Shown here: positions 1,419 to 64,000 of the stretch, in pieces
Position numbering within the stretch: position 1 is the stretch's first letter
How the letters are laid out: each line of letters begins with the position of its first letter
Source: Candidatus Magasanikiibacteriota bacterium
GTDB taxonomy: Bacteria; Patescibacteriota; Patescibacteriia; Magasanikbacterales; UBA922
Length of the DNA stretch: 64,000 nucleotides
NCBI GenBank assembly: GCA_049287025.1
Contig: JBAQFA010000051.1
Location: 65,697 to 129,696 of the forward strand
Reading direction: 5' to 3'
Position numbers and translations under genes: made by a program
Notes under the pieces: model-generated
The model's database searches: none
Seen by the model: the letters and a program-made list of their open reading frames with translations, nothing else
What the model was told of the DNA's origin: nothing

Positions 1419-1501
1419 AATTTATTTATGGCTTCTCTCTAGTTTAATATGGCCAAATTGTGTTATAATATAATTGAAAACTATTTAATCTAAAAGAAAT
1501 T

Positions 1502-2218: not shown

Positions 2219-2237
2219 ATTTAATTTATATAGACTT

Positions 2238-3929: not shown

Positions 3930-3930
3930 A

Positions 3931-15434: not shown

Positions 15435-15436
15435 AG

Positions 15437-20433: not shown

Positions 20434-20454
20434 AATTATATTTGATAAAATTTT

Positions 20455-29100: not shown

Positions 29101-29451
29101 AATACTGCTTTGAATAATTTTACTGAAGCTAGAAAAAATTATGATAAATCAAGAAAAATGGGTCCATCTATAATTACCAAGGGTCCTGGTTATTATCAAG
29201 ATAGTCATTTGGATCAAACTTTTAAATGGTTGGATGCTATGATTGATGGATATATAAAACTAGGTCCGACTTCAAGAGCAAAGAGTAGAGCCAAAAATTG
29301 TTATAAAGAAATGGCAAAATTAAGAGGATATGTACGTAAGGCAGAAAAGAAGTATAGAGGAGATCCTGATAAACAGCCATTTGGTAATCATTTATATGAA
29401 GATATTAACGCAAGGATGGAAGGTTATGTACATCAAATAAATAAAAAATAA
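26110..29451 (+). CDS. Giant acidic hypothetical protein (coiled-coil and low-complexity regions)
   Basis: 1113 aa. No TM helix or signal peptide seen. E/K/D-rich, with a long coiled-coil segment and a 'GGEVEVVVEGGGRKKGKKGKK' stretch. No recognisable domain. Confidence 0.6.
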   Translation: MSFKEFKNFFQSPKGIKRDERITASVKGFFDDRKQTKGMVDAYEFDRKEKERNDAEASKMVTSRRFQNKGENIDEGESEVHSAVEYPGKWEMLKDRLVGGNRQEPVADFLEAEARAEAKIHKRRVQDWIEGSEDGSVKGIRQIIEEQNLDIDLEFVLEKINQKEKDWGTHYEQFIRDIFSMVAEMKVMIYQENLVRWMTDLVETEGFDIEVDLDGILGKLNQAINRSGGDFSKVNSELQETEREIKIEVKRQMLSGWLDKFLAPSEQCKTEKDTAVNGVEEDLKIELEKVDGLSKATSEVNKLVQKQDALELRKRILSEEMLKLERLEQESEVGAEVEGGEVEVVVEGGGRKKGKKGKKVETAGNASTIEERKARVQKAIDEYEDELKLARAELALSREKLATITTQAGGSAEKVRVLKERKKQLQGEQKSAEDELKKVKGVIETFRQDINTQAKSSGSNESSFRLEIARIKRKASNDLDKLGGIKDFPDLDNIPEMPKLDLPELPDEFCYLPSDVQSKLSKKKPVDVKKPWELTGPMAPSGIFRAASGGKISPFRKERGGETEKSDKDRLREILAGNNLEKKIQALVKWAEEKNRRQGLGDESDEYSALSLLLRAESFVNGLSDNDKKVEWLKTIGTWINMPERDKQNYDALSDTDRAIINDLEINYNPQTGKPELFRKDDLDRLEQQIENESDPEKKLILLLKKAQYEAMGLLEGDFNKTLELVSQELEKIKDNCARFISLACLVAERRNNLGADDGETKRILGTAVEMTEKVEDLTEREKLIKKLIKSYGALGPRKEAIDHLVGDTSEPISEPVEESVETEELDEDAPVVDEQSTRTEDFVGFDYDEVFTDDEAASQVDEDVDSQTVPNQDKSKDVAKLAWLKNLGKRLVPSFLKRNQEKVEPNQTGPDVQEPEQESESDQEFNKLLESMEGDHVNIKLKSLAEFVQDQESKGTFGSISDRVKDMVGGLSQELNKRGERSSENTMGAYIDLARVNTALNNFTEARKNYDKSRKMGPSIITKGPGYYQDSHLDQTFKWLDAMIDGYIKLGPTSRAKSRAKNCYKEMAKLRGYVRKAEKKYRGDPDKQPFGNHLYEDINARMEGYVHQINKK

Positions 29452-39715: not shown

Positions 39716-40321
39716 ATGAAAGAAGGACCATGGTTTAAAACGGCGGCTAAATTTGTCATACCATTGGTTGGATTAGGAATGGCAAGCCCAAATGCTGAAG
39801 GAAGAGAGCTTAAGTTTGAAAAAAATAAAGCTTCATATGCTATTGACCCCGATGGTGATGGTGTACCATCTGTACGTGAGGACTCAGAGGGTCGACTGGT
39901 TAGAGGTGATAATTGTCCAAAAAAGCCCAATCCTGACCAATCGGATGCTGATTATGATGGTGTTGGAAATGCATGTGACAATTGCCCTGAGGAAAGAAAT
40001 CGAAGGGAGAATCCTGGTGAGAGTAAAAGATACCGGGTGGGAGGGGATGGTTCTATCATTGGTGATCCTTATGAAATATTTGAGAAAGCTAAACAGCCAG
40101 ATAAAGATGGTGACGGTATCGGCGATGAATGTGATTTTGATGGCAATGATGTGGATGGTGATGGCATTATTAATGGCGCTGATAATTGTCCACATAATCC
40201 GAACAAGGGTCAATCAAATTTGGACCACGATGGTCTTGGTGATGCATGTGATGACGATGCTGATGGGGATGAAATTTCTAAAAAGAATGATAGAAATGAC
40301 TTAGATCCAAATAAATTTTAA
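39716..40321 (+). CDS. Thrombospondin type 3 repeat (calcium-binding) protein, secreted
   Basis: 201 aa. N-terminal hydrophobic signal. Repeated 'DNCPxxPNxDQSDxDxDGxGxACD' units, e.g. 'GDNCPKKPNPDQSDADYDGVGNACDNCP', 'DKDGDGIGDECD', 'DNCPHNPNKGQSNLDHDGLGDACDDD'. Confidence 0.7.
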   Translation: MKEGPWFKTAAKFVIPLVGLGMASPNAEGRELKFEKNKASYAIDPDGDGVPSVREDSEGRLVRGDNCPKKPNPDQSDADYDGVGNACDNCPEERNRRENPGESKRYRVGGDGSIIGDPYEIFEKAKQPDKDGDGIGDECDFDGNDVDGDGIINGADNCPHNPNKGQSNLDHDGLGDACDDDADGDEISKKNDRNDLDPNKF

Positions 40322-43609: not shown

Positions 43610-44464
43610 TTGTTCTACAATATAAGAATGAGAGAATACTTTTGGTTTAATATAATGTGCTTATCAATCTCAGTGTTTTGTGGACTGGGGACGTTTTTGA
43701 TTTGGCAGAATTTTTTAAATACTGAGTCATTTGTTCATTATACAATTACATCACAAATTGAAGTAGAAGATCAAAAGACTAAAAGATCAGAAGATCAAGT
43801 AATTTTGAATAAAGATCTTCCGATCTTGCGATCTTCTACTCTTGACATAGCAAGTACAACAAAAAATAAAAAAATTATTGAACTACCAAAACAATACAAC
43901 CTCGCCGTCCCATTTACTTCCCAAGCGCCAGAAAAGAATTGGGATCAGCCGTGGCAGGATGCTTGCGAAGAAGCAGCACTTCTGATGTTGGATGCTTATT
44001 ATAAAAATTATAAATTGAGTCCTTTATTTGCCAAGGATGAAATTTTGAAAATGGTAAAGTGGGAGGAAAATAAAGGCTGGGGGAGAAGTATTGAAATAGA
44101 AAAGATAAAACAGGTAGCAGAGGAATACTTAAAAATTTCCAATTTCCAATTTCCAATTTCCAAACTCGTGATTATTGAAAATCCCACAGTTGAAGATATT
44201 AAAAAATCGATTGCCAATGATAATCCAGTGTTAGTCGTGGCCGATGGAAAAGCTTTACCCAATCCACATTTTCAAAATGGTGGTCCAGAGTATCACGCCT
44301 TAATTATTCGTGGCTATACTGAAACCAAATTTATTACCAATGATCCGGGTACACAGTTTGGTGAAGCGTTTGAATATGAGTATGATGATTTGATGGATGC
44401 GATTAGAGATTGGAATAATGGAGATGTGAAGAATGGACGCAGAGTAATTTTGGTGATAGAATAA
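43610..44464 (+). CDS. Peptidase C39-like (papain-fold) domain protein, membrane-anchored, with in-frame repeat insertions
   Basis: 284 aa. N-terminal TM helix. 'VPFTSQAPEKNWDQPWQDACEEAALLMLDAYY' fits the Peptidase_C39_2 pattern. Family-A element at 43766-43840, tttccaa x4 at 44135-44163. Confidence 0.5.
   Translation: MFYNIRMREYFWFNIMCLSISVFCGLGTFLIWQNFLNTESFVHYTITSQIEVEDQKTKRSEDQVILNKDLPILRSSTLDIASTTKNKKIIELPKQYNLAVPFTSQAPEKNWDQPWQDACEEAALLMLDAYYKNYKLSPLFAKDEILKMVKWEENKGWGRSIEIEKIKQVAEEYLKISNFQFPISKLVIIENPTVEDIKKSIANDNPVLVVADGKALPNPHFQNGGPEYHALIIRGYTETKFITNDPGTQFGEAFEYEYDDLMDAIRDWNNGDVKNGRRVILVIE
43766..43840. repeat. Family A palindromic element inserted in frame in the C39-like gene
   Basis: gaagatcaaaagactaaaagatcagaagatcaag ... 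aaagatcttccgatcttgcgatcttc. Encodes 'EDQKTKRSEDQVILNKDLPILRSS'. Confidence 0.5.
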
Positions 44465-48758: not shown

Positions 48759-48835
48759 AGGGCAATTAGCTCAGTTGGCTAGAGCGCAACACTGATAATG
48801 TTGAGGTCCCAGGTTCGATTCCTGGATTGCCCACC
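48759..48835 (+). tRNA. tRNA-Ile (anticodon GAT)
   Basis: GGGCAAT-TA-GCTCAGTTGGCTAGAGC-G-CAACA-CTGATAA-TGTTG-AGGTC-CCAGG-TTCGATT-CCTGG-ATTGCCC-A-CCA. CCA is encoded. Confidence 0.9.
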
Positions 48836-48945
48836 AAACACAGTTGGACAAAACTGTGTTTTAATTTACAAAAAAGATGCTTAGTAATGAGATTCTCGGA
48901 GCGAAGCGAAGATCCCGATTTTTATCGGGACTGGATTGCCCACCA
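48836..48945 (+). other. Terminator hairpin, then a second tcccga-tttttat-cggga hairpin fused to a 15-nt copy of the tRNA-Ile 3' end (ctggattgcccacca)
   Basis: aacacagtt-ggacaaa-aactgtgtt followed by T4 at 48836-48868. 48909-48945 reads gatcccgatttttatcgggactggattgcccacca, then the hairpin ccgtcc-aaaata-ggacgg. Confidence 0.4.
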
Positions 48946-49024
48946 AGCCGTCCAAAATAGGACGGTTTTAAATTTGATTTTTTTGGGAAATAGGTATATA
49001 ATTGATTTTACATTAATTTATTTT

Positions 49025-49663
49025 ATGATACTAAATCTTACAGAAAAACAAAAGGCTGAAGAAGATGGAGAGGAAGAGTCTTTACCGATTGTAAGTGAGA
49101 CAGAAAAGGGTTTTTTGGCTAAAACCAGTCTTTTCTTTTTGGAGTTAATCAAGATTGTCATCTTGGCGGCAATTACCATTGGTTTGGTACGTTATTTTTT
49201 GTTCAAACCATTTTATGTAAAAGGTCAATCAATGGAACCAAATTTTTATGAAAGTGACTACCTTATTATAGATGAGTTATCTTATCGTTTTCGTGAACCC
49301 GAGCGGGGGGAGGTTATTGTTTTTCGCGCTCCCGTAGATAAAAAAGAATTTTACTTGAAAAGAATTTTAGGCTTGCCTGGTGAGAGAGTGAAGGTTGGTG
49401 ATGGTAAAGTCGTGGTTTATAACAATGATTATCCCCAAGGAATTTTAGTGGATGAATATTATTTGACCGAAAGCACACCTGGTTCAACTATGACTACTTT
49501 AGGATCAGATCAATATTTTGTAATGGGGGATAATCGTGATGCCAGTTATGATTCACGTCGGTTTGGTCCGATTGACAAAAATGACGTTGTTGGACGCGCT
49601 TGGGTGAGAGGTTGGCCATTTACTCGAGTAGGTAAGTTGGGCACGCCTGAATATAATTTTTAG
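49025..49663 (+). CDS. lepB: Signal peptidase I (S26 family)
   Basis: 'FYVKGQSMEPNFYESDYLIIDE', 'GEVIVFRAP', 'YLKRILGLPGERV', 'YFVMGDNRDASYDSRRFGPI'. Start set at ATG 49025. The track ORF start at 48827 runs through the tRNA-like fragment. Confidence 0.8.
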   Translation: MILNLTEKQKAEEDGEEESLPIVSETEKGFLAKTSLFFLELIKIVILAAITIGLVRYFLFKPFYVKGQSMEPNFYESDYLIIDELSYRFREPERGEVIVFRAPVDKKEFYLKRILGLPGERVKVGDGKVVVYNNDYPQGILVDEYYLTESTPGSTMTTLGSDQYFVMGDNRDASYDSRRFGPIDKNDVVGRAWVRGWPFTRVGKLGTPEYNF

Positions 49664-51188: not shown

Positions 51189-51434
51189 ATGTCAGAAATA
51201 AAACGTAAAAAAGGTGAATCCTTTGAAGCTTTTATGCGCCGAATTAAACGGCGTTGGCAACAGTCCGGTAAATTGTTACAGGCTCGTAAAATCCAATACG
51301 TCCAACCTACCTTGAGCAAGAACATGCAAAAGAAGCATACCGTAAAAAAGTTGCAAATGGTTTCAAAAATGAATTATCTGCGTAAAATTGGTCGTTTACC
51401 AGAAGAAGAAGAAAAATTCACTAAAAGAAAATAA
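51189..51434 (+). CDS. rpsU: 30S ribosomal protein S21
   Basis: 81 aa, basic. 'GESFEAFMRRIKRRWQQSGKLLQARK'. SD AGGAGGTG lies 8 nt upstream. Confidence 0.7.
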   Translation: MSEIKRKKGESFEAFMRRIKRRWQQSGKLLQARKIQYVQPTLSKNMQKKHTVKKLQMVSKMNYLRKIGRLPEEEEKFTKRK

Positions 51435-51439
51435 ACTTT

Positions 51440-51883
51440 ATGTCTTTGCGTGATGTAATTCAGGAGGCGCAAAAACAAGCTATGAAAGAACGCAAAGAGA
51501 AAACCTTATCTACTTTGCGTCTTTTGTGGTCACAAATTAGAAATACCGAGATTGATAAAAAAAGCGATCTGACTGATAGTGAAATTTTGGATGTGATCAA
51601 ACGGCAAGTTAAACAATTAAAAGATTCATTAAAAGATTTTGAACGGGGCGGTCGACAAGATTTGATCATGGGTGTAAATGAAGAAGTGAATTTGCTAGAA
51701 AGTTATTTGCCAGCGCAAATGGGAGATGAAGAACTCAAAAAAATAACTGAAGAAGTTTTGCAAAAAAATAATATTACTGAAACAAAAGATATAGGAAAAG
51801 CGATTGGCCTCGTGATGAAAGAAATTAATGGTGGGGCAGACGGTAATCGAGTGCGCGAGTTGATCAGTCAAATTCTAAAATAA
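51440..51883 (+). CDS. GatB/YqeY-domain protein
   Basis: 147 aa. 'DSEILDVIKRQVKQLKDSLKDFERGGRQDL', 'ELKKITEEVLQ' are YqeY-like. Confidence 0.65.
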   Translation: MSLRDVIQEAQKQAMKERKEKTLSTLRLLWSQIRNTEIDKKSDLTDSEILDVIKRQVKQLKDSLKDFERGGRQDLIMGVNEEVNLLESYLPAQMGDEELKKITEEVLQKNNITETKDIGKAIGLVMKEINGGADGNRVRELISQILK

Positions 51884-51899
51884 ATAAAAAAATTAATTC

Positions 51900-54020
51900 T
51901 TGTCCCTGGTTTCCATGCTGACTAGGACTGACAAAAAATTAAATTGGTTAAAAAGAACTACCACATTGTTTGCGGTTATTTTTATGGTAGTTTTTTTGTT
52001 TGCTTTTTTGCAACCGACCTCTGCTCAAGGAGTAATACAAGGTGGCAATGAAAATACTGATACTCTTGGTATAGAAACTATTGATCAAAATATTGGTTTG
52101 ACTGGTATGGACATAAGATTAGTAGCGGTCAAAATCATTCGGGCAGTTTTAGGTTTACTTGGTATTATTGTTTTGGGTTTAGTTTTATATGCAGGTTATA
52201 CTATTATGACCTCAGGTGGTAATGAAGAAAAAGTTCAACAAGGTAAAAAGATCTTGATCAATGCGGTAATTGGTCTCATAATTATAATGTCTGCCTTTGC
52301 TATAGTACAATTTATTATTAATATGCTTAGTGGCAATGGCGGTAGATTTGGAAATGATAATAGTTCTCGTCCAAGAATTGAGACTTTTGCTGGCAGTGGG
52401 TCACTGGGCAAAATAATCCGTGATCATTACCCAATGCGAGGGCAAACTGGAGTAAAAAGAAATACAAAAGTAATGATTACTTTTGCCGATGCAATTGACC
52501 CGAGTACCATAATAGAAAATACTAACAATACTTGCTGGGCTCCAGATGGTTCCCCAACATCCACTTGTCCTACTGGAGCAGTTCCATATTATGGTGATTG
52601 TTTGGTGCGAGCAGATTTTGATTGGGGGAGAGATTGTGATCATCTAATTTCCAACAATTTAATTATTTATAAAACAGATGATACAACCAAGACTCCGGTA
52701 GAGTCGGCTGCTATGACGACTTATAATGCTGATAGAGATGCTTTTACTTTTGTATTCAAGCCACTTTCCCCATTAGGTAGTGATGAGGGAGACGTGTGGT
52801 ATACAGTGACTTTGGATAATGATATAAAAAGAAAAACAGGTGAAGGTGCTTTTGATAGTCAATTTTATAAATATTATACGTGGCAATTTCAAACTGATAC
52901 AGGATTTGATTTCACACCACCATATGTAGTAAGTGTTGATCCAGTGGCAACTGATAATAATATTTCAAAAAATACTATTATACAGATTATGTTTAATGAA
53001 GCGATGGATCCGACAGCGGTACAAGGAGTTTTGGACGGTACTGGTTTATTTAATAATTTAGTTTTTCATAGTGTGAGTATAACTGGTGAGTGGCAAGTGT
53101 CCAATGGTTACACAACCGTAGAATTTGTTTCAGACCAACCGTGTGGCATAAATAGTTGTGGCGGAACAATTTATTGTTTGCAATTGGATTGTTCGCCAAT
53201 AGACACAGATTGTTCAGAAGATTTTCAAACACTTATTCGTACAGCCGCGAAGTTGTCTGGAGGGCAATCATTTGAAGCTCTGCCTTTTTCTGGAGTTATG
53301 GATGCCGCTGGCAATGCTCTAGATGGCAATGAAGATGATATAGCTCAGACTAAGCCACCTATGCCAGGCACAATGGAGGAGAGAGCAGTTATTGGGCTTG
53401 GTGAAGAGACAGCTGACAACTATTTGTGGTCTTATAACGTAAAAAATAAAATTGATAATATATCACCCTATGTCCAAAAAGTTTATCCTGGGTTAGACGA
53501 AGGGTCGGTGTCAAAAGACGCTGTAGTAGAAATTAATTTTAGTCGAAAAATGCGTTCGTATAATTTTAGTGATATCCAATTGGACCAACACCCTGATGTT
53601 GTAGATGATTTAAATATTGATTTTGCTTTTTGGGTCAGATCAATTGTTAGTGAAAATAATAAAACAATTGGAAGAATATATAATAGTAGTGGTTTTGGTT
53701 CTAATGGAGCTAATTTTTATTATTTTCCTCAAGTGCCAAGTAGTATCGTAAGTACAAATTTTAATTGTTTGTACCCTGGTCGGGGTCCAGTCAGATCACC
53801 ATCGGATATTAATTTTTCTCCCACTTGTGTTGTTGGTGAATATGACGAAAATGGTAATCCGATTGCATCGTCAATTCAAAATTGTGTGAATGTTAGTAAC
53901 GTTAGTTCAACTATAGATACTGGCTGTATTGATGTTAGTGATGTAAATGTACAGGCAACTGATTCAGTGACTAGTTGTTTAAATTATCTTCAACGACTTG
54001 ATGTTAGTCCAATTTTTTAA
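51900..54020 (+). CDS. Large surface protein with an N-terminal double-TM VirB2/TrbC-pilin-like module and a cysteine-rich extracellular region
   Basis: 706 aa. 'IRLVAVKIIRAVLGLLGIIVLGLVLYAGYTIMTSGGNEEKVQQGKKILINAVIGLIIIMSAFAIVQFIINML', then a Cys-rich domain. Paralogous N-terminus to the next gene. Confidence 0.65.
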   Translation: MSLVSMLTRTDKKLNWLKRTTTLFAVIFMVVFLFAFLQPTSAQGVIQGGNENTDTLGIETIDQNIGLTGMDIRLVAVKIIRAVLGLLGIIVLGLVLYAGYTIMTSGGNEEKVQQGKKILINAVIGLIIIMSAFAIVQFIINMLSGNGGRFGNDNSSRPRIETFAGSGSLGKIIRDHYPMRGQTGVKRNTKVMITFADAIDPSTIIENTNNTCWAPDGSPTSTCPTGAVPYYGDCLVRADFDWGRDCDHLISNNLIIYKTDDTTKTPVESAAMTTYNADRDAFTFVFKPLSPLGSDEGDVWYTVTLDNDIKRKTGEGAFDSQFYKYYTWQFQTDTGFDFTPPYVVSVDPVATDNNISKNTIIQIMFNEAMDPTAVQGVLDGTGLFNNLVFHSVSITGEWQVSNGYTTVEFVSDQPCGINSCGGTIYCLQLDCSPIDTDCSEDFQTLIRTAAKLSGGQSFEALPFSGVMDAAGNALDGNEDDIAQTKPPMPGTMEERAVIGLGEETADNYLWSYNVKNKIDNISPYVQKVYPGLDEGSVSKDAVVEINFSRKMRSYNFSDIQLDQHPDVVDDLNIDFAFWVRSIVSENNKTIGRIYNSSGFGSNGANFYYFPQVPSSIVSTNFNCLYPGRGPVRSPSDINFSPTCVVGEYDENGNPIASSIQNCVNVSNVSSTIDTGCIDVSDVNVQATDSVTSCLNYLQRLDVSPIF

Positions 54021-54027
54021 TTAGTTT

Positions 54028-57000
54028 ATGAAAGGTTTAAAAAGCAAAATTTTATTTAGTTTCTTAATTGCAGTTTTTTTAATTGGAGGCTTTTTGTGTG
54101 TTTCTAATTTTGCTTTGGCTCAAACAGATACTTTGGGTTTAAACTCAGTTGGCGATAATATTGCCTTAGCTGGGACTGATATTAGAGTAATTGTTGTTAA
54201 AATAATCCGAGCTCTTTTGGGGTTATTGGGGATCATTGCTTTGGTAATAGTTTTGTATGGTGGCTACGTATATATGACTTCGGGCGGTAATGAAGAAGAA
54301 ATTGGTAAAGCAAAAAAGATTTTGATAAACGGTGTAATTGGATTAATAATTATTTTCTCGGCTTTTGCGATTGTCCAATTTGTTTTGAACAAATTGGCCG
54401 ATGCTACTGGTCTTAATGATAATAATATATCCAAACTTTGTTCTGATCCAAATTATGCTGTATTACATCATGACCAATGTTATCCAGATAATTGGTGTCA
54501 AGATCTAACTGATTGTTGTGAAAAAAATAGTTTTGTTGTAAAGAGTATTACCCCAAACACTGATTCCACTAATATGAATAATGTGTTGGTTAGAGTAGTG
54601 TTTAGTGGTCGTATTCAGTATAATTCTGGTGATGTAAAAATTTATAAAAGTGGTAAAGACATTTCTACTGATTTTGAGTTTAGTGTGGTAGGTTCTAGTA
54701 GTAAAGACGAAAATTCAGTGATTGAGGCTAGATATAATGGTCAAGAAGTCTGTGATGAAGGTGGAAAATGTCTGCCGTCTGGTGAATATAAGGTAGTTGT
54801 TAGCCCTGACATAAAGGATCTGTCAGGTAGACAAATAACCAAAGATACGGCTTGTGGCACCTATTTCTTAGAAGCCAGTTTCCAAGTTAATACAGGGGAG
54901 TTTGCTGGTTATTATCATTTAGATGGTACAACTAGTAGTTTGTATATTACACCGAATACAGTTCATCCTTTGTTAAATGACAAAGTGACAGTGGGGGTAT
55001 GGGTAAAAGTAAATGGTCCAGCTATAGATAGTTGGGTAGATGCTACGAGTGGTAAGACTGTAACATCTACAGCGGGTTGGGTTATATCCAGCGAAGGTTT
55101 TGGAGTAGAGTTGATGGCCAATCTTAATGCTAGTAATACTGTCAATATAGCTGGTGGAATTATGGATGCAATTGATCCAATAGTTTCGAATGGAAAAGGT
55201 GGATACTCGTCTCATCCCAGAACTAATACTACAGTGGTGACAGATAAAAAGGTAAATGAGTGGTTTTATGTGTCAATGACTTATGATGGTAGTATTATAA
55301 AATTATATATTAATGGTGAATTTAAAAAATCAGTTGTTCAGACCGGTCCGATAAAACAATCTAAAACAAGATTTAGTATTGGGTCTTTGGATAATTTACG
55401 TTATAATTTTAATGGTGACGTGGATGAAGTTCATGTTTATAATAAAGTTTTAACGCCTCAACAGATAACACAAAATTATAGTGGCGGTCTTGGTCGGTTG
55501 GATCATTTTAGTTTAGTTCAAGACGGTATTATCCTAAATTTACATTTTGACAAGACTGATGATTTGACAGATTATTCTACCTATAAACATGTAGTGAAAA
55601 ATAATAATGCAATTTGGGTAAATGCTACTACTGAACCAGGTGTTGATAAAGGAATAAAAAAAGATATAACGCCACCTAATTTAGAAAATATTATTATTGA
55701 TGGTAAAGTGTCTAGTAATGGTCAATTGTATCGAGGTCGAACTTATAGTTTTAAAACTAGACTATCTGACAACAGTGGGGCGGGTTTGGTGCGTTTTTCA
55801 TTAGACAAAATAAAGTCTGGTGATGTTTTGGAACGAAATTTAAATTCTTATGGTGGACCTAGAATAAATAGGGTAGGTGGTTCTGATGCTCCACCGAGTA
55901 ATAAATATGATTATCACTATGCACTATATTTACCTTTGGTTTCCACGGCTCTACAAGATTACCAAGTGACTTTGGAAGGTTGGGATATTGATAGTAATAG
56001 TACGATTGTGACTACTACGTTTAGAGTAATTGGTGAACATTGTGACAATGAAGTGCAAGATGGTGATGAAACAGGTGTGGATGTGGGTGGTTCTTGCGGT
56101 CCAGGTAGAGATGGTGCTTGTAAAAATGATATTGACTGTGCTCCAAATTATAAGTGTGTAAATAATTTTTGTGTACCTAGTCCATTGATTACTGATGTTT
56201 TGCCAATGCGAGGTGCAGGTGGTAATTGGGTCACAATTCTTGGTAAAAATTTTGGTGATAGTGGAAAAGTGTATTTTGGAGCAGACACAGTTGGTAATGC
56301 TCAATATAATGGTCCATGGAATTGGTCTGAAGTTAGTCTGGTTGATTGTGGTGGTTATGATACTTGGCATAATAGTTGGATAATTTTTGAAGTACCAGAA
56401 GGAGTAATAAATGATTTGTATAATATTAAAGTAGAGAGGGCTGATAATGGTTTATCTGATACTACTAGGGATAATATTGGCCCAAGACCAAATGAAATTG
56501 GTTTGTTTGTAAAAAATGATACTAAGAGTCCAGGGTTGTGCCAAGTTGGAGTAGACATAAATGATAATGATATCCCATATGGAGCAGTTGTGGCCACAAG
56601 AAATACCCCAATATTTTTGGTTGGTAAGTCATTTGGTGATACTACCAAATCTGGTAGAGCGGTAATGTTTGGTGGTTCTTATGATGCTCTCCAAGGGAAA
56701 TTAACTGGGGGACTTCAAGCTCTGATACAGACCAATGGTTGGAATGATGCTCGGATTAATTCTTTTGTTCCTAGGAATTCTCAATATGGTAAACAGTCAG
56801 TTTATGTGACAGTTGATGGTCAGGCTAGCAATGGTTTACCATTTACAGTGGTAGATAAAGATGGTTTGTCTGAGCATACCCCAGTGATTGAAGAGATTAG
56901 TCCAACCTCCACTACGCCTGGCAGTTTAATAACTATTTTTGGTAAAAATTTTGGTGACATGCCAGGTAATATTTTTGTGGCCAAAACTAAAGCTGATGCT

Positions 57001-60000
57001 TTGAGTTGTAATGTGGATTCACCCCAAAATAAATGTATAAGGCTTTACAATCAAAATGACACTGAATTTCCAGAAAAATGTGATAATACCTGGAGTGATG
57101 ATCAGGTAGTGGCTAAGGTACCGGGTGGTTCTTGGCTTGATAGGCCTATAGTAGCCCCAGAATCTGGTTATCAGGTAACAACTAGCACTAACAATAGAAT
57201 ATTTAATATAAATTCTTTGCCAGCGGATGAAAGTGTTTTGAAATCGGCTTTAGATTTTTCTTCGCCATTTACTTTGGAAATAAAATTTAAATTGGACAAA
57301 TTACCAGCATACCATCAAACAATAGTAGATTCGAGTGATTGGCCTTATCCACATTTGAGATTTGATGGGGTAGATGATTATGTAGAAGCACCAGGGTTAG
57401 ATTTGACTGGTAAGTCTTTTACTGTGGAATTTTTTGCTAAACGTGGTGCTATAAATAGTGGTGACGATTTTATTATCGGTCAGGGGATTAGTGAAAGTTA
57501 TAAAGGATTACAAATTGGTTTTAGACCAAATAATAAATTTACCTTTTCGTTTTGGTATTCAGACGTTGATACTCCTGCTTACACTGATTTGGATTGGCAT
57601 CATTGGGCGGTTACTTATGATAAAGATATACACAAAAAAAAGATTTATAGAGATGGGATATTAATTTTGGAAAATATAAATCCTAACGGCTATATTTACA
57701 CCGCTGGTAGTAAATTAAATATTGGTGGGTGGGTAGATGATGTCTACGGTAATCGTTGGTTCAAAGGTGGTTTAGATGAATTGAGAATATTAGACAGAGT
57801 TTTGTCTCAGCAAGAAATCAGTGAGGATGCTGCCAAAATAAATACTGGTGATAGTTATGTTTTTAGAAATAATGTTTTGCTCTGGTATCACTTTGATGAT
57901 AGTAGTGAACTAGTTGTTGAAGATAAATCTACTTATGGTAATAATGGTACTCTAAAAAATGGCGTTGTTCGTGCCGGTTGGGGAAGTGGTGGCTCGAGAG
58001 GCATATATGAAGGTATCGTCGGTAGAGCGGGAAATTATGGATTTATATTTCCTTTTGTTGATGATAAACCAGTTTTTTGTTTTGCCTTGCCAACTGTTGG
58101 TGTTGAAAATGTGGAACCAATATGTAGTATCCAAACAGTTAGAGTTGGAGAAACTTACCATTATGTTATTACTTGGGATAAAGATAGGGGGGCAATAAGA
58201 TTGACTGATTCTGGTGGTCATAGTGAAACAGCTTTTGCAACTGGTTTAGATTTGAGTCAAGATCAATTTTTGATTGGTAAATTTGTGACTGATAACAGTG
58301 AAGCAACGATTGAATATTCGTTGAATAGGTTAAATATTTTGCCTGGTTCAGCTTTGTTTGATAATGATGTAACCAGCCTTTTTAATAATAATAATCGTCC
58401 TGGTTGGTCAAATTTAATGACTAAGTCTGGAATTATTTCCACCGACTTAACCGGTGGTGAAATTACCCCAACAAATGGCCTAACTGCTGGTAAATTTTAT
58501 ACAGTTTTAAGACGTTATGATGGTCTAAGTAGTTTAGGTGATGATAATTTTGATATAACAGATGGTCCAACCAAGCCTGGTTTGTGCAAGTTGACGCCAA
58601 ATAGTGGGTTGTCTCCATTACCATCAGGTCAATATTTAACTTTGAATGGTGAGGGTCTTAGTTCCAACGTTGATCCAGTTGTTTATTTTTGGCAAGTAGG
58701 CTCTGTGGCGGGTAACTATAGTACCTGGCTTGGATCTAATAGAGATTTGTATAATGGTGCGCCAGTTTTACACAGAACCTCAACTAACGAGATTGAGACT
58801 GCTATCCCGGTGTCTTCTCTTGGTAATAGTTTGTCAAATCCAGGGGACATAAAAGTTGTTGTAAATGGTCAAGATACTAATTCTCTACGTTATCAATTAA
58901 GTGATTGTACCCAAGCGAGTGAAGTTGAAGCTAATGTTATGTCAAGTTCAAGTTATCATTGCTGTTCTACTCCTGACTCAAGAGATTATGGTTTGTGGAA
59001 AAATACAGTTTGTGATGGTGACACTGTTAGTGCTGGTTATGTGTGGCGTTTTACCAATGGTAGAATAATTACCGCCCCATTTGTTTTGGAACGTTGTGAT
59101 GCTGTTTCTATACCTTCGCCCTCACCTAGTTTGATAAATACAGAAGACGCGAGAAATGCTTGTCCAAATGCTATTATAACAACGGTATTTTCTAGACCCA
59201 TGAATAGTTCAACCTTGGTTGCGAGTAATGTGAAAGTTTATACTTGTGGTAGCACGGAGTTTGGTAGTATTGATTGTGATACAAATAAAGTTGATGTCAC
59301 AAGTAATTATGCTTTTGTTGTAGAAGGAGAGAGTGTTTTAAAATTAAATCCACCTGCGTCAGGTCATACCACCAATACTTGGCATCGAGTGGAATTATCT
59401 AGTAATATTGAATCAATTGAAGAAATTGATGAATTTGACAGTCAGAGATTGGTTGGTCAAAAATTAAAAGCCACCAGACCTTTATCACGGACTAATATTG
59501 CTTATCACTTTGATTTTAGAACCGGGGCAACCAATTGTAAATTAGTCGGAGCAAATATTGAACCAAATCTTTACTCAGTAGATTATCTTGGTAAACTCCA
59601 GGATCGTCGTTATCTTTTTGACAAGAGCACTAATGCTCTGTATCATCCGGCCAATCCTTTATATTTATTTATCAATGGTCGAGCAGATCAGGAATGTACA
59701 AATATTAGTGCCGAAGGTTATCCTTGGCAGTGGAATCCACGTTATCCAAATTATAATAGTGATACACCACCGGCTACTATACCCACTGATGTAGCTACAG
59801 CAACTGTACAGTTAGCACCGTCTTCTGGTACTTCAACACCTATTTATACCAATACCAGAGCTACAGCCATTGGTTGGCATGAGGGGTTGGGTAATTTATC
59901 AGTTAGTACAATTGTTTCTTCTTCTGTAGCTGGTGATTCTGATAAAGTAATAACAGCTACTTCGGCTATATCAATTATTTTAGGTCCACCACGGGTGACA

Positions 60001-63000
60001 TATTATGAACCAAATTGTTCCGAAGCTTGTATTAATGGCAGCCTTAGAATTGGTTTTAGTCGACAAATGAAAGTGGATACTTATAATGATAGTAATGGTA
60101 TAAAAATGTACAAGTGCGCTAATGCTAATTGTTTATCAGATCAACTAACGGCAGTAGATAGTAGATATTATGAGGTTGATTCCGATGCTTCTACTAATTG
60201 GGAAATGATTGTACAGATGGTAAGTTCCTCACATTATTTAGAGCCAGATACAAATTATAAAGTTGTTTTAAATGGTTATTATAATTCTGGTGTTTATGTT
60301 AGTAGCACTGCAATACAGGGTCTGACTGAGTTATCTGGTATTATTTCTGATAACACCATTAGTCTAATACCGTTTCAGTGGCAATTTAAGACTGAAGCCG
60401 GTGGCGTGGTTTGTAAGGTAAATAGAATTGAGACTGAACCTGTAAATATTTATCATAATTATATTGGACAAAAATCACTAGTAGTAGCCAATCCCTATAG
60501 TAGCCCAAATGAGTGTAGCGCGACTGGACAACTTCTAAATCGTTGGGATTATGGTTATACTTGGAGTTCAGCTAACGGTTCAATCGCTTCGGTGTCTAAT
60601 TTTAATTATAAAGCTTCTTGGCCAGATTTTTGTGCAATGGATTGCTTACCAAAGGGGAGTGATATCTCTTCTAGTACTAATAATATTGGTTTGTCAGTCT
60701 GTGGTAATGGTACAGTTGATTTGGGAGAAGATTGTGATATTGCGCGTGCCGGTGAGGTCATTGGTGTGTCTTGTAGTTTAAGTTGTTTGCGTCCAGGAAA
60801 TAATGTTACAACTGGTACCTCTGGTTTTGTTTGTGGTGATGGCATTGTTAGTTCAACATTGGGAGAACAATGTGAACCGTCTGTTGAGGGTACAGATGTT
60901 TGCTCAAGTAAATGTTTGTTAACTGGTTCTAAACCACAGACTAATGTAGTGGTTTCCGGCGCCTCTATTTGTGGTAATAATAAATTAGAAAAAGGCGAAG
61001 CCTGTGATCCAGAAATTGGTGTTAGTGGTTGTACCAATAATTGTTTGCACACTGGAGCGCAGTTAGCATCTTATTGGTGTGATAGTGATCCAGCCTCGGC
61101 TTTTGCTACTTCTACAATATGTCTTAATGCTCCTAGTGTTTGTGGTAATAATAAAATAGAAAAGGGTGAAGAATGTGAAGTCAATTTGGATAGTACTTCT
61201 TATTTAAGAGTTTTAAATCAAGATAATTATAATGCTGTAAATGGTAGTTCTGGTTTACTTGTAACTAGTGGCACGCCCGCTTATTATTGTTCAGATTCTT
61301 GTTTACTAAAGAATTTGTGTGGCGCGACTTTTATACCAGATAGTTATGGTCATAAATGTAATGCCAGTAGTGATTATTGTAATAATGATTGTACCTTAGC
61401 AGGTTCATCGCCTGTGTATGCGACTTCATCTTTTTGTGGTAATGGTGTAGTTGAAAATGGTGAATCTAATATTTGTGAGGTGACTTCCACTATAGCTGAT
61501 ACTGTCCCTGGTACCAACCCTACCCAAATGGTGACAGCCATTGGTAGTCTGATGACATCTAGTTCCACCCAGGAGACTGATATTCGGGCAAATTTATTTC
61601 AAGATAGTACGATTTTAGGTTCATCCAATTATTATTTGATGTGTGGTTATAATGAGTTTGAAAATCCTGAATCTGATGTATATAATAATTGCCCATCAAA
61701 TGCTAATAATGGCTATGGTGTAGGAACCAATTCTTGTTGTTATGCTAGACCTCTGCGTAAAACTGGTTCAGAATATCCTTTGGATTCAGCTGGTCTGTCT
61801 GGTCCTGGTGTTTGTCGTAATACTTATATAGCGGTTGAGTTTGATGGTTATTTGGATGAAAAGACAGTTAATAAAGATACGGTATTTTTGGCGACTGGTA
61901 TAAATACTAATACTAGTACATACAATTGCTGGTCTGGAAGTAATAATGTGACTGATAAAGTAATTTCTGCTTTAGATTATGTACCAAATTATCTGGTTTT
62001 AGGAGACGGTAGTTTTATAAATAAAAGTTTGGCTTTTATAAAGAACATTTTTGTAAAAATTACAAGATTTTTTGTTGAATTAGTTTATGCATATAGTCCT
62101 GTGGTAACAGATTATGATACTTGGTGCTCACCAAATTTGGTAAAGGATGTTCAGGTAAGTTATAGAGTGGATGCGTCATCTACTACCCATAGTATTATTA
62201 CAAAGTTAGATATACAGTTAAATGCTGTTTTGGAAGCGGAAAAAACTTATGCTGTGGTACTGGTGGGTGGAAAAAGTGGTATAAAAGATAAGTATGGTGT
62301 TGGTATTAAAAACCAGAGAACAGACAGTAATGCTTTAAATGATGGTTGGGTGTTCAAGACCAGAGCTGATATTTGCACATTGAGTCAAGTGGATGTAAGA
62401 CCCGACAATCATCTGTTTACAAGACCATTAACAACCACAACCTTTGAAATTTTTGGTATTAGCCAGTCAGCTAATAATCAATTATTACAACCAATTGCCA
62501 ATGTGTATGATTGGAATTGGATTTGGTCGCCGACTACAACTCAATTATTCGATATACCAGTCGCTGGTACTAGCTGGGATAGTAATAATATTATTATTGG
62601 CTCTACCGAATTAGAAGGGGATTTAATGGCTGTTGGTAAAGCAGAAATTGTTAGCTCGACTGATGCAAAAGAGGTTGGGAAAGTTTTGGCAGATACTTTT
62701 GATTTGACAGCGAATTTTTGTGAAAGACCATGGCCAGATTTTAATGATGATGGTACTTGGGAACCATTTAAAGACACTGTTTATAATTTTAGCTTGAGCT
62801 ATTGTGCAGATAAGGGGGCTTCTGGGGATACGAGTGATGATTTACCATTTTTGACTAATTCAGTATTTGTCACCAGTAGCGATCCAGCCAATTTGAGTTT
62901 TGCTGCGTCCACTGGTACTTTGAAAAGGTTTTTCTTATTTAATGATAAAAATGATGATGTAATTGGGATTCAAATTTTTAGCAATGAAGATGGATTGGAT

Positions 63001-64000
63001 GTTGATAAATGGTACAAAGCTCAGCCGTTTGCTGGTCAAAAAACTTTGACAACTGGTAGAGTGGCTAATTACCCAGCTTTGGTAGATGAAAATAATTATT
63101 ATGTAAATGTTTTGAATATTGATGAAGCTACTAATATTACCTATAGCAATATTTATTTGTTCAGTCTTAATAAAGGAGCGCAAAAAAATACTAGAACAGT
63201 TTTTGAAAAATTAGTCCTGGACTCACTCAAGTTTAATATAAACCTAACTGATTTTGGTTATTGTTTGCGTTCCAGTGCTGATCTTTATGTTTCACCTTAT
63301 AATTATATAGAAAAAGAATGTGATACAGATTTTGATTGTCGTGATAGTTTTGGTGTGCCTCTCACCAACGCCAATGGAACTTGTTCCAATGTTAAAACCA
63401 AAATATTTAGAGATTTGGATAGACTAAATGATATAAAAGAAATTCAAGGTATTTTTGATAAGTTTAAAGCTGGTTCAACAATGTACCCTGATCTAAAAGG
63501 TGGTACTTATATCCCAGGCTATACCAATTCCAAATGGTCTTCTTGGGGATTATTGGCAAGTAAAATAAACAGTGGCTTACCATCAGACCCCTTAAACACC
63601 TGGGTAGGTTGTGATAGTAATGCCGAACAGGGTACCTGCTGGAATGCAGTTAGTTCAACTTTTTATTGTCCGCATTTTGCCAGCATCTATGAATACAAAG
63701 TAGCCACTTCTACCAATACTTTTTTGTTCCATGTACCATTAGAATATTTCAAACCTTGGTATGGGGTGTCTAGCCACTATGTTTCACCGACTGGTAGTTA
63801 TTCATTTGACAGACTGTGTGAACCTGATTTTTCTTATAGTCCATTTGGAGCCTCTTGTGGTGATGGAGTGGTAAATAGTAATGAAGAATGTGATCCACCC
63901 GGTTCAATGCGAGTAATCGCTAGTACTACCCAGGGTTTTGTGGCGACTTCTACTTGTAGTGATACTTGTATGTGGAGTGATAATAATTTTTATGAAACAA
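54028..64000 (+). CDS. Giant surface protein (>3300 aa, 3' end beyond window): double-TM pilin-like N-terminal module, LamG/ConA-like lectin domains, IPT/TIG domains, Cys-rich CGNGxxExGExCD repeats
   Basis: ATG at 54028, frame 1. The ORF track lists no frame-1 plus-strand ORF anywhere in 54028-64000, and codons read sensibly at 56191, 58561, 63301 and 63991. N-terminus 'IRVIVVKIIRALLGLLGIIALVIVLYGGYVYMTSGGNEEEIGKAKKILINGVIGLIIIFSAFAIVQF'. LamG-like 'EWFYVSMTYDGSIIKLYINGEF' and 'HHWAVTYDKD...IYRDGIL'. IPT-like 'ITDVLPMRGAGGNWVTILGKNFGD' and 'IEEISPTSTTPGSLITIFGKNFGD'. Cys repeats 'CGNGTVDLGEDCD', 'CGDGIVSSTLGEQCE', 'CGNNKLEKGEACD'. Confidence 0.7.
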   Translation, partial: MKGLKSKILFSFLIAVFLIGGFLCVSNFALAQTDTLGLNSVGDNIALAGTDIRVIVVKIIRALLGLLGIIALVIVLYGGYVYMTSGGNEEEIGKAKKILINGVIGLIIIFSAFAIVQFVLNKLADATGLNDNNISKLCSDPNYAVLHHDQCYPDNWCQDLTDCCEKNSFVVKSITPNTDSTNMNNVLVRVVFSGRIQYNSGDVKIYKSGKDISTDFEFSVVGSSSKDENSVIEARYNGQEVCDEGGKCLPSGEYKVVVSPDIKDLSGRQITKDTACGTYFLEASFQVNTGEFAGYYHLDGTTSSLYITPNTVHPLLNDKVTVGVWVKVNGPAIDSWVDATSGKTVTSTAGWVISSEGFGVELMANLNASNTVNIAGGIMDAIDPIVSNGKGGYSSHPRTNTTVVTDKKVNEWFYVSMTYDGSIIKLYINGEFKKSVVQTGPIKQSKTRFSIGSLDNLRYNFNGDVDEVHVYNKVLTPQQITQNYSGGLGRLDHFSLVQDGIILNLHFDKTDDLTDYSTYKHVVKNNNAIWVNATTEPGVDKGIKKDITPPNLENIIIDGKVSSNGQLYRGRTYSFKTRLSDNSGAGLVRFSLDKIKSGDVLERNLNSYGGPRINRVGGSDAPPSNKYDYHYALYLPLVSTALQDYQVTLEGWDIDSNSTIVTTTFRVIGEHCDNEVQDGDETGVDVGGSCGPGRDGACKNDIDCAPNYKCVNNFCVPSPLITDVLPMRGAGGNWVTILGKNFGDSGKVYFGADTVGNAQYNGPWNWSEVSLVDCGGYDTWHNSWIIFEVPEGVINDLYNIKVERADNGLSDTTRDNIGPRPNEIGLFVKNDTKSPGLCQVGVDINDNDIPYGAVVATRNTPIFLVGKSFGDTTKSGRAVMFGGSYDALQGKLTGGLQALIQTNGWNDARINSFVPRNSQYGKQSVYVTVDGQASNGLPFTVVDKDGLSEHTPVIEEISPTSTTPGSLITIFGKNFGDMPGNIFVAKTKADALSCNVDSPQNKCIRLYNQNDTEFPEKCDNTWSDDQVVAKVPGGSWLDRPIVAPESGYQVTTSTNNRIFNINSLPADESVLKSALDFSSPFTLEIKFKLDKLPAYHQTIVDSSDWPYPHLRFDGVDDYVEAPGLDLTGKSFTVEFFAKRGAINSGDDFIIGQGISESYKGLQIGFRPNNKFTFSFWYSDVDTPAYTDLDWHHWAVTYDKDIHKKKIYRDGILILENINPNGYIYTAGSKLNIGGWVDDVYGNRWFKGGLDELRILDRVLSQQEISEDAAKINTGDSYVFRNNVLLWYHFDDSSELVVEDKSTYGNNGTLKNGVVRAGWGSGGSRGIYEGIVGRAGNYGFIFPFVDDKPVFCFALPTVGVENVEPICSIQTVRVGETYHYVITWDKDRGAIRLTDSGGHSETAFATGLDLSQDQFLIGKFVTDNSEATIEYSLNRLNILPGSALFDNDVTSLFNNNNRPGWSNLMTKSGIISTDLTGGEITPTNGLTAGKFYTVLRRYDGLSSLGDDNFDITDGPTKPGLCKLTPNSGLSPLPSGQYLTLNGEGLSSNVDPVVYFWQVGSVAGNYSTWLGSNRDLYNGAPVLHRTSTNEIETAIPVSSLGNSLSNPGDIKVVVNGQDTNSLRYQLSDCTQASEVEANVMSSSSYHCCSTPDSRDYGLWKNTVCDGDTVSAGYVWRFTNGRIITAPFVLERCDAVSIPSPSPSLINTEDARNACPNAIITTVFSRPMNSSTLVASNVKVYTCGSTEFGSIDCDTNKVDVTSNYAFVVEGESVLKLNPPASGHTTNTWHRVELSSNIESIEEIDEFDSQRLVGQKLKATRPLSRTNIAYHFDFRTGATNCKLVGANIEPNLYSVDYLGKLQDRRYLFDKSTNALYHPANPLYLFINGRADQECTNISAEGYPWQWNPRYPNYNSDTPPATIPTDVATATVQLAPSSGTSTPIYTNTRATAIGWHEGLGNLSVSTIVSSSVAGDSDKVITATSAISIILGPPRVTYYEPNCSEACINGSLRIGFSRQMKVDTYNDSNGIKMYKCANANCLSDQLTAVDSRYYEVDSDASTNWEMIVQMVSSSHYLEPDTNYKVVLNGYYNSGVYVSSTAIQGLTELSGIISDNTISLIPFQWQFKTEAGGVVCKVNRIETEPVNIYHNYIGQKSLVVANPYSSPNECSATGQLLNRWDYGYTWSSANGSIASVSNFNYKASWPDFCAMDCLPKGSDISSSTNNIGLSVCGNGTVDLGEDCDIARAGEVIGVSCSLSCLRPGNNVTTGTSGFVCGDGIVSSTLGEQCEPSVEGTDVCSSKCLLTGSKPQTNVVVSGASICGNNKLEKGEACDPEIGVSGCTNNCLHTGAQLASYWCDSDPASAFATSTICLNAPSVCGNNKIEKGEECEVNLDSTSYLRVLNQDNYNAVNGSSGLLVTSGTPAYYCSDSCLLKNLCGATFIPDSYGHKCNASSDYCNNDCTLAGSSPVYATSSFCGNGVVENGESNICEVTSTIADTVPGTNPTQMVTAIGSLMTSSSTQETDIRANLFQDSTILGSSNYYLMCGYNEFENPESDVYNNCPSNANNGYGVGTNSCCYARPLRKTGSEYPLDSAGLSGPGVCRNTYIAVEFDGYLDEKTVNKDTVFLATGINTNTSTYNCWSGSNNVTDKVISALDYVPNYLVLGDGSFINKSLAFIKNIFVKITRFFVELVYAYSPVVTDYDTWCSPNLVKDVQVSYRVDASSTTHSIITKLDIQLNAVLEAEKTYAVVLVGGKSGIKDKYGVGIKNQRTDSNALNDGWVFKTRADICTLSQVDVRPDNHLFTRPLTTTTFEIFGISQSANNQLLQPIANVYDWNWIWSPTTTQLFDIPVAGTSWDSNNIIIGSTELEGDLMAVGKAEIVSSTDAKEVGKVLADTFDLTANFCERPWPDFNDDGTWEPFKDTVYNFSLSYCADKGASGDTSDDLPFLTNSVFVTSSDPANLSFAASTGTLKRFFLFNDKNDDVIGIQIFSNEDGLDVDKWYKAQPFAGQKTLTTGRVANYPALVDENNYYVNVLNIDEATNITYSNIYLFSLNKGAQKNTRTVFEKLVLDSLKFNINLTDFGYCLRSSADLYVSPYNYIEKECDTDFDCRDSFGVPLTNANGTCSNVKTKIFRDLDRLNDIKEIQGIFDKFKAGSTMYPDLKGGTYIPGYTNSKWSSWGLLASKINSGLPSDPLNTWVGCDSNAEQGTCWNAVSSTFYCPHFASIYEYKVATSTNTFLFHVPLEYFKPWYGVSSHYVSPTGSYSFDRLCEPDFSYSPFGASCGDGVVNSNEECDPPGSMRVIASTTQGFVATSTCSDTCMWSDNNFYET

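Follow-up and report, generated by a model that had tools for sequence, protein, structure and literature searches.

Candidate phyla radiation (CPR) bacteria encode VirB2-like pilins of the family PF18895, whose genes lie in a type IV secretion system (T4SS) cluster or near virB4 in 1,135 of 1,948 assemblies, a location that is typical without being obligatory, and which form arrays of 2-11 genes (PMC12102498). In Ca. Southlakia epibionticum, a cultivated CPR bacterium, the T4SS and the VirB2-like pilin array are essential (PMC10633639). Giant surface proteins with adhesion domains and a proposed role in host attachment have been described in other CPR bacteria, e.g., in Absconditicoccaceae (PMC13059738), and modular type IV pilins are known from Streptococcus sanguinis, where PilB carries a vWA module and PilC a lectin module (PMC8179133, PMC9934059). 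Here we describe a gene pair from Candidatus Magasanikiibacteriota bacterium (assembly GCA_049287025.1, contig JBAQFA010000051.1, positions 65,697 to 129,696), located in a stretch of 64,000 nucleotides which we refer to as the window. Its two adjacent open reading frames (ORFs), ORF-A and ORF-B, encode proteins A and B, both of which begin with a PF18895 module and continue into adhesion-type domains. We favour, with moderate confidence, the interpretation that A and B are a conserved surface pair of Magasanikbacteria in which VirB2/TrbC-type pilin modules serve as more than plain anchors, i.e., that they are modular pilins or pilin-anchored adhesins.

In the searchable literature we found no description of a VirB2-type module fused to large ectodomains, and this architecture, present in databases, is apparently undescribed. 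To our knowledge, and in line with negative literature searches, VirB2-type pilins that naturally carry a large C-terminal domain are not known. The two genes and their N-terminal modules lie as follows.

51915..54020, forward strand: ORF-A, 701 aa, with signal peptide, VirB2-like hairpin, linker and Ig-like ectodomain
51915..52028, forward strand: predicted Sec-type signal peptide of ORF-A, about residues 1-38, ending ...PTSAQG at 52028; hydrophobic stretch 11-41, model helix 8-30, n-region KK..KR
52113..52340, forward strand: two-helix hairpin of ORF-A, residues 67-142, loop MTSGGNEE; PF18895, 34.4 bits
54028..64000, forward strand: ORF-B, whose 3,324 residues in the window begin a protein of 4,105 aa or more; frame still open at 64000
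54028..54120, forward strand: predicted Sec-type signal peptide of ORF-B, residues 1-31, with the cut between ...NFALA and QT; model helix 4-33
54181..54408, forward strand: two-helix hairpin of ORF-B, residues 52-127, loop MTSGGNEE; PF18895 and AlphaFold

A program-made ORF list gave ORF-A as 51900..54020, with a TTG start at 51900. The ATG at 51915 is the likely start, because Met1 from this codon is nearly invariant among 72 ORF-A orthologues and because it yields a normal signal peptide, with a basic n-region, a hydrophobic core and the end ...TSAQG. The gap between yqeY and ORF-A is therefore 31 nt, and not the 16 bp given in an earlier note on this DNA. ORF-B begins with an ATG at 54028, seven bases past the ORF-A stop, and its frame is open to 64000 (3,324 codons), just as the earlier note had reported; it was missing from the ORF list because the frame leaves the window. 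Contig JBAQOB010000129.1 (GCA_049304355.1), which is 100% identical to the window at the protein level, carries ORF-B as protein P0059, with 4,105 residues called, of which 1-3,324 equal the window translation and 781 lie beyond it. A protein of more than 3,300 residues that exits the window, as had been claimed, is thus confirmed; the search for its stop further downstream lengthened the frame to 4,105 aa but did not reach a stop, since the contig ends inside P0059. From an alignment with orthologues, its full length is estimated at about 4,200-4,400 aa. In a species-representative genome collection, relatives of ORF-B were found only at 34-46% identity, and a word-index search with its C-terminal part returned four fragments.

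A frame of this length raises the question of an artefact, either a mis-assembled or frameshift-fused frame or a decaying pseudogene. ORF-B does not close in the window, and its relative at locus L006, one of the Magasanikbacteria loci compared below, is interrupted (a 1,649-codon segment). However, an independent assembly at NCBI and two Logan assemblies contain the same sequence at 100% identity. Moreover, 53 other homologues of 3,077-5,289 aa, in 53 distinct 50%-identity clusters, are uninterrupted and keep the order of the regions, and the giant gene of L012 (3,683 aa) lies on a 1.23-Mb contig that is apparently chromosome-scale. We regard an assembly artefact as excluded, and a pseudogene as having next to no probability.

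The N-terminal modules of both proteins scored above the Pfam gathering threshold of PF18895 (T4SS_pilin; 26.6 bits), with 34.4 bits for protein A, 36.9 bits for protein B and 43.2 bits for the isolated 140-aa module of B, and the profile was matched by all 56 aligned module relatives. The TrbC/VirB2 profile PF04956 (cutoff 27.9 bits) gave 25.5 bits with the isolated B module (E 1.6e-5, profile positions 6-97 of 98), below the cutoff, and 17.3 bits with full-length ORF-B; at E<=0.01 it matched 23 of the 56 module relatives, the best with 1.2e-7. NF045849, the profile of the Mbov_0395 family of pilin-like proteins from Mycoplasma integrative and conjugative elements (ICEs), describes an 80-residue hairpin, of which positions 8-78 were matched; against a cutoff of 40, the isolated B module reached 39.2 bits and A 34.3 bits. 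AlphaFold returned a confident helical hairpin in both proteins, composed in ORF-B of helices 52-84 and 89-127, with a predicted local distance difference test (pLDDT) score of at least 90 over most of the hairpin, and in ORF-A of helices 67-98 and 104-142, whose pLDDT lies at about 84-94 along most of their length. At the level of sequence profiles, these results show that the module belongs to the patescibacterial VirB2-like pilin family PF18895. They bear out the proposal that it is a pilin-like module of the VirB2/TrbC type, and not an ordinary signal anchor, as well as the hairpin for which structure prediction had been recommended.

Stand-alone relatives were recovered by a word-index search, which yielded 54 proteins of 105-238 aa, all short PF18895 members with 31-72% identity; the short relatives closest to the module measure 105-190 aa. 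The loop motif M-T-x-x-G-N-E is near-invariant across the module and the stand-alone pilins (M83, T84, G87, N88 and E89 of alignment A1). The stand-alone proteins terminate about 5-20 residues past helix 2, just after a conserved 'ATG' in the protein, and it is at this place that ORF-A and ORF-B run on into a linker. Two stand-alone relatives were examined, and both lie within tandem pilin arrays of 8-10 genes, in agreement with the arrays published for CPR. The arrays, with 8 PF18895 genes at L014 (8778-12532) and 10 at L016 (472-6133), have no VirB4 within 10 kb; the L016 array adjoins a phage-type integrase gene. In addition, P0060 (555 aa), P0061, P0063 and P0104 (1,775 aa) are 'poly-pilins', single chains of tandem PF18895 hairpins, with 6 PF18895 stretches in P0060 and 17 in P0104; judged by eye, each module of P0060 has its own GNEE-type loop.

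The ends of the stand-alone pilins bear on a minor rival explanation, in which the hairpin would be an export and processing module and A and B precursors that are cut after helix 2, near ...L..ATG, releasing a secreted or wall-bound ectodomain and leaving a normal-sized pilin. The chains of stand-alone relatives stop only a few residues from 'ATG', the point at which the low-confidence linker of A and B starts. TrbC and VirB2 pilins undergo C-terminal trimming and cyclisation, and such a cut would resemble this trimming. Nevertheless, no dedicated maturation peptidase of the TraF type was found nearby, the only peptidase of family S26 there being signal peptidase I, and the C-termini of the homologues carry no recognisable wall-sorting or anchoring signal. 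We consider processing of this kind improbable.

The hydrophobicity scan detected three hydrophobic segments per protein, all within the first 125-141 residues of A and B, and none of the 53 homologues of at least 3,000 aa has a C-terminal transmembrane (TM) segment. Because a Sec signal peptide is followed by two membrane helices and by nothing hydrophobic thereafter, both the N-terminus of the mature protein and everything C-terminal of the hairpin should lie outside. This argument is based on the signal peptide and on the count of hydrophobic segments, and not on charge, since the charge of the loop and its flanks was near neutral in a charge-based topology prediction. The single chains with 6 to 17 tandem hairpins agree with a topology in which both ends are outside, and a cysteine content of 2-2.6% is consistent with an extracellular location. 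We infer, with good support, that the ectodomains are displayed outside the cell and anchored by the hairpin; this would tie a pilin family physically to surface display and fix its topology as both ends outside.

The ectodomains of the two proteins contain the following regions.

52407..54017, forward strand: ORF-A ectodomain, residues 165-701, a string of Ig-like beta-sandwiches with 14 cysteines; Big_5 E 1.1e-16 in three stretches
54526..54849, forward strand: ORF-B Big_5 Ig-like domain, residues 167-274, the best stretch of a whole-protein Big_5 sum of 36.7 bits
54925..55467, forward strand: ORF-B Laminin_G_3 (LamG) lectin-like domain 1, about residues 300-480; 64.8 bits
56188..57132, forward strand: ORF-B IPT/TIG region, about residues 721-1035, at least two TIG domains; 57.9 bits in two stretches
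57364..57822, forward strand: ORF-B Laminin_G_3 lectin-like domain 2, residues 1113-1265; 92.1 bits
60700..61479, forward strand: five Cys-rich CGNGxxxxGExC[DE] repeats of ORF-B, residues 2225-2484; regular-expression hits
61807..61992, forward strand: further ORF-B Big_5 Ig-like domain, about residues 2594-2655; 29.1 bits in two stretches
63856..63894, forward strand: sixth Cys-rich repeat of ORF-B, residues 3277-3289

The AlphaFold model of ORF-A (mean pLDDT 86, predicted template modelling score 0.77, most of the ectodomain above 90) consists, after the hairpin, of a disordered low-confidence linker (141-162) and of beta-sandwich domains (165-701). Its Foldseek matches were LdtMt2 Ig (BIg) domains, protocadherins and DSCAM, and no enzyme fold was among them. 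NCBI annotates protein A in GCA_049304355.1 as 'Ig-like domain-containing protein'. In ORF-B, two Laminin_G_3 domains (PF13385, cutoff 27.6 bits; 135 bits over the whole ORF-B) and TIG (PF01833, cutoff 20.9 bits) all exceeded their Pfam thresholds, TIG on an isolated segment, as the earlier note had anticipated. Big_5 likewise exceeded its cutoff of 23.6 bits over the whole of ORF-B, whereas the segment of residues 167-274, taken alone, gave 18.8 bits. The cysteine-rich repeats that had been compared to a Myxococcus-type repeat do occur, with the motif present six times in the window and with 18 and 13 cysteines per 200 aa in the repeat stretch, but the DUF4215 profile (PF13948, cutoff 27) stayed sub-threshold: segments from the window reached 14.9 and 14.3 bits, and the tail outside the window 23.3 bits. 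This tail of P0059 holds more Cys-rich repeats together with TSP3-like DxDxDG repeats (TSP_3, 21.1 bits, below threshold). Profile matches thus show the domains after the hairpin to be of adhesion type.

A direct comparison of ORF-A and ORF-B by BLASTP gave one significant match, between residues 19-155 of A and 5-133 of B (53% identity, E 9e-28), and no detectable similarity between the ectodomains. The description of the pair as two paralogous giants is therefore true in part: they are neighbours sharing a module, with paralogy over the N-terminal 135 residues or so, but not in the ectodomains, and only B is a giant (A has 701 aa). A six-frame translation of the window contained no third copy of the module.

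In an exhaustive search, the module was found in 34,758 cluster representatives. Among the best 150 module matches, 54 were of at least 3,000 aa (including ORF-B, i.e., P0059) and 36 of 600-900 aa. ORF-A matched 717 cluster representatives at E<=1e-5; at least 120 of the clusters listed are orthologues of 549-778 aa with both PF13205 and PF18895, and the homologues listed are named at source 'hypothetical protein', 'Ig-like domain-containing protein' or 'pilin'. When the 4,105 aa of ORF-B were compared with the 53 other giants by BLASTP, a scaffold of about 31% identity was conserved at residues 1-300, 500-1000, 1500-3400 and 3700-4000, with residues 701-1000 (the TIG region) aligned in 53 of 53. 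LamG region 1 (about residues 300-500 of B) was aligned in only 5-6 of the 53 giants and LamG region 2 (about residues 1050-1500) in only 2-4 across residues 1101-1500, whereas the scaffold flanking them was aligned in 40-53. By these alignments, the stalk is conserved and the LamG regions are lectin-like inserts specific to the lineage; variable ligand binding would fit such inserts.

Not only the proteins but also their gene neighbourhood recurs. The pair, with the module in both proteins, was found at L004-L007, L009-L010 and L011-L013 (at L004 and L005 the fetched flank covers the A-B pair only), and the block of S21-like gene, yqeY, A and B is kept in at least six other Magasanikbacteria genomes, with A of about 660-760 aa and B of about 3,300-4,000 aa. 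The genes upstream of the pair in the window are given below.

48827..49663, forward strand: signal peptidase I, four genes upstream; TIGR02227 141 bits (cutoff 47)
51189..51434, forward strand: gene resembling that of ribosomal protein S21, 81 aa, divergent; TIGR00030 20.2 bits (cutoff 28.95), Pfam S21 15.1 bits (cutoff 27)
51440..51883, forward strand: yqeY (GatB/YqeY family), directly upstream of ORF-A; Pfam YqeY E 3.4e-39

The upstream genes had been read as rpsU-yqeY, an assignment that holds for YqeY, whereas the S21 profiles remained sub-threshold on the divergent first gene. Four metagenome-assembled genomes of Magasanikbacteria (L006, L007, L009 and L010) carry the block, with the histidyl-tRNA synthetase (HisRS) gene visible in L006, L007 and L009; in L011 (984-kb contig), L012 (1.23-Mb contig) and L013, signal peptidase I and HisRS genes lie upstream of the block, so that the gene order including signal peptidase I is shared with the window. 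YqeY is upstream of the pair in L006, L007 and L009-L013, and the S21-like gene is next to yqeY in L006, L007 and L009, with a gene of similar size at that position in L011 and L012. Downstream of the pair, relatives encode small TSP3-repeat proteins, a protein of about 400 aa, YbeY, FtsA and FtsZ. A and B may plausibly be transcribed together with yqeY and the S21-like gene, because the gene order is conserved and no terminator-like site was predicted between yqeY and ORF-A; the counts of the promoter and terminator scan were not above shuffled expectation. The signal peptidase I gene was also considered as a TraF-like pilin-maturation enzyme, a candidate that we rejected (TraF_Ti 39 bits, cutoff 100). 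Small secreted proteins with TSP3 (Ca-binding) repeats are encoded in the window at 39716-40321 (forward strand), in L007 at 14140-15533 and in L009 at 15035-16006; in the relatives, one or two of them lie directly downstream of the giant gene.

This neighbourhood is the starting point of the main rival explanation, in which the hairpin is a passive anchor with both ends outside and A and B are structural envelope proteins (an S-layer-like coat, wall-spanning fibres or a division-site scaffold), with no link to a T4SS or pilus and no need for host binding. The fixed housekeeping block of signal peptidase I, HisRS, S21-like gene, YqeY, A and B, followed in relatives by TSP3 proteins, YbeY, FtsA and FtsZ, agrees with such a role. 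So do the distance of the pair from any T4SS gene, the class-wide conservation of the greater part of both ectodomains, and the fact that Ig domains of the Big_5 type are common in envelope proteins; published VirB2-like hits from Magasanikbacteria, moreover, are flagged as not near virB4. We consider this explanation possible but somewhat unlikely, for the following reasons.

Among the giants, identity in the hairpin was 49-72%, versus about 31% in the ectodomain scaffold, and in the ORF-A family the hairpin was 56% identical versus 41% for the ectodomain. The hairpin, including the polar loop GGNEE..K.KK, is thus the most conserved part of B, and the residues that are near-invariant in stand-alone pilins are retained in it. 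Such a constraint argues against a passive anchor, because a passive anchor needs only hydrophobicity. In addition, within a genome the A hairpin and the B hairpin follow each other in sequence. Using 100-aa modules from eight loci (the window, L004, L006, L007 and L009-L012), we found A and B hairpins of one genome to be 61-81% identical and orthologous hairpins of different genomes 56-65% identical, the within-genome value being equal to or above the between-genome value in most of the eight. Stand-alone CPR array pilins, by comparison, have a mean identity of 25% to one another (PMC12102498). Finally, lineage-specific LamG inserts suggest changing ligands and not a uniform lattice.

As for the origin of the A-B likeness, the 5' ends of the two genes are not linked by any DNA repeat longer than 22 nt in the window, so in this genome at least the similarity of the hairpins is seen only in the proteins, and recent gene conversion between the 5' ends was rejected here. 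The within-genome likeness is modest evidence that the two hairpins may be co-adapted to each other or to a common partner, and it would not be expected of a passive anchor. Hairpins that resemble each other despite unrelated ectodomains point, as an observation in its own right, to concerted evolution or co-adaptation.

In the favoured interpretation, A and B as pilin-module surface proteins, both would be exported by Sec and their signal peptides cleaved by signal peptidase I, after which the hairpin would sit in the cytoplasmic membrane with both ends outside, exposing 560 aa of A and about 4,000 aa or more of B. The outer part may form a long stalk whose lectin-like heads attach to the surface of partner or host cells. 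With less certainty, the hairpin may have been retained for specific contacts with other pilin subunits or with the T4SS assembly machinery, and A and B could act as modular low-abundance pilins, whether by priming or capping a filament of the VirB2 type or by docking in the membrane pilin pool, by analogy with modular minor type IV pilins and, functionally, with the tip adhesin VirB5. A functional coupling of A and B to a T4SS/pilin system is put forward tentatively; since no T4SS gene lies in the 64-kb window, incorporation into a pilus is likewise a tentative proposal.

Several observations weigh against this interpretation. No VirB4, VirB6, VirB3 or type IV coupling protein domain was found in window ORFs of at least 100 aa, and no T4SS gene in the flanks of L007, L009, L011 and L012, including 7-10 kb downstream in the orthologous loci. 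The TrbC and NF045849 scores are just below the curated cutoffs. A Foldseek comparison of the hairpin with the PDB retrieved only generic helical hairpins (E >=0.18) and no T4SS pilin, and searching PDB sequences with a profile of alignment A1 yielded 0 hits at E<=10; because these solved-structure searches were uninformative, the VirB2 link rests on profile similarity and on the published association of PF18895 with virB4. A filament of PF18895 proteins has never been observed, and 'pilin' is itself a hypothesis for the family. With an extension of 450 kDa, B cannot make up the bulk of a helical pilus in which subunits are tightly packed. The fixed place of the pair among housekeeping genes and the class-wide conservation of the ectodomains fit a structural envelope role as well as they fit adhesion to a host. 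For the earlier suggestion of pilus-like or filament-tip adhesins, this means that the adhesive part is supported by the adhesion-type domains after the hairpin, but placement in a pilus or at its tip is not, with no T4SS genes nearby; the cognate secretion or assembly ATPase that it called for is absent from window ORFs of at least 100 aa.

On the other hand, according to published tables, Magasanikbacteria (class ABY1) assemblies do carry VirB4 and TrsD, at least one of them also VirB3, but their VirB2-like hits lie away from virB4. A survey of CPR T4SSs found no PrgB-like adhesin (PMC12102498). A more specific proposal, which we consider unlikely and offer as speculation, is that Magasanikbacteria build a VirB2-type filament with A and B as its initiating or tip subunits, in which the two co-evolving hairpins would form a heterodimeric cap, covalently fused to a 60-kDa Ig stalk in A and to a lectin-bearing fibre of at least 450 kDa in B. 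If true, the pair would be the first natural modular conjugative-type pilins, and their cap would supply the missing patescibacterial T4SS adhesin, with swappable LamG inserts setting host specificity. In Southlakia, the only genetically tractable CPR bacterium, the T4SS/pilin array is essential for epibiotic life, yet no pilus has been seen. The family described here is large and conserved, with the same pilin module fused to adhesion domains, and its members are candidates for the means by which ultrasmall cells make contact with their partners. About 1% of a genome of about 1 Mb is taken up by the giant gene, and hundreds of clusters of proteins of about 700 aa exist. VirB2 surveys that filter by small size, or that omit protein length, can miss this fused architecture.

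Other genes of the window were also inspected. Two adjacent ORFs at 26110-29451 and 29465-33619 (forward strand; 1,113 and 1,384 aa) encode proteins rich in E, K, L and D, nearly Cys-free, with no TM segment and no Pfam hit, and coincide with the strongest GC and AT skew of the window. The ORF at 10188-13640 (forward strand, 1,150 aa) encodes a large, apparently secreted protein without the pilin module; it begins with a signal peptide, contains 2.8% Cys and matched nothing in Pfam. At 13995-15434 (reverse strand, 479 aa) a protein matched the HopA1 effector protein family with 43.5 bits (cutoff 22.7), which is unexpected for a CPR genome. The region 17791-22371 (forward strand) encodes first a DUF4012 protein (880 aa) and then a protein with DUF11 repeats (638 aa), with one TM-like segment each, a pair that is probably envelope-associated, and 43610-44464 (forward strand) a Peptidase_C39_2-like protein of 284 aa, with no NCBIfam match, upstream of a UvrD helicase gene.

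Compared with known systems, A and B are closest to the patescibacterial VirB2-like pilins of PF18895, with which they share the signal peptide, the two-helix hairpin, the loop motif, an above-threshold score and, as two module-bearing genes, the tandem arrangement. The pilins in the literature are of about 110-190 aa and end shortly past helix 2, whereas A and B add 560 and about 4,000 or more residues; array pilins are mutually divergent, unlike the A and B hairpins of one genome, and are typically encoded near virB4, which the A-B pair is not. With VirB2, TrbC and TraA of diderms (PF04956), the likeness consists of a long signal peptide, a hydrophobic helical hairpin and a short polar loop; the differences are a monoderm host, a sub-threshold score, no TraF-type peptidase nearby and no match to a solved pilin. 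The hairpin match to the Mbov_0395 family (NF045849) is consistent with the published ancestry of CPR T4SSs in the mating-pair formation class MPF-FATA, but the ICE proteins of that family are small and encoded inside conjugation gene clusters, unlike A and B.

More distant systems resemble the pair in design or in function. VirB5 and CagL, at the pilus tip of diderms, and PrgB of Gram-positive conjugation have the function that is proposed for A and B, target-cell adhesion in the service of a T4SS, but they have no sequence relationship to A and B and are separate proteins, not fused to a pilin fold. Giant surface proteins of CPR bacteria and SiiE are similarly huge (the former relative to a genome of about 1 Mb) and combine signal peptides or TM segments with Ig-like, ConA-like or Ca-binding repeats; these have ordinary signal peptides and TM anchors, or are type I secretion system substrates, and none has been reported with a pilin-family module. 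The modular type IV pilins share the design of an N-terminal pilin module grafted to an adhesive or lectin module, and the likeness is one of design only, since they belong to an unrelated class, with a class III signal peptide, a single N-terminal helix, a prepilin peptidase and the type IV pilus machinery. A and B, in contrast, have Sec type I signal peptides (cut between ALA and Q in B, ending TSAQG in A), a VirB2-type hairpin and an extension up to about 10 times larger.

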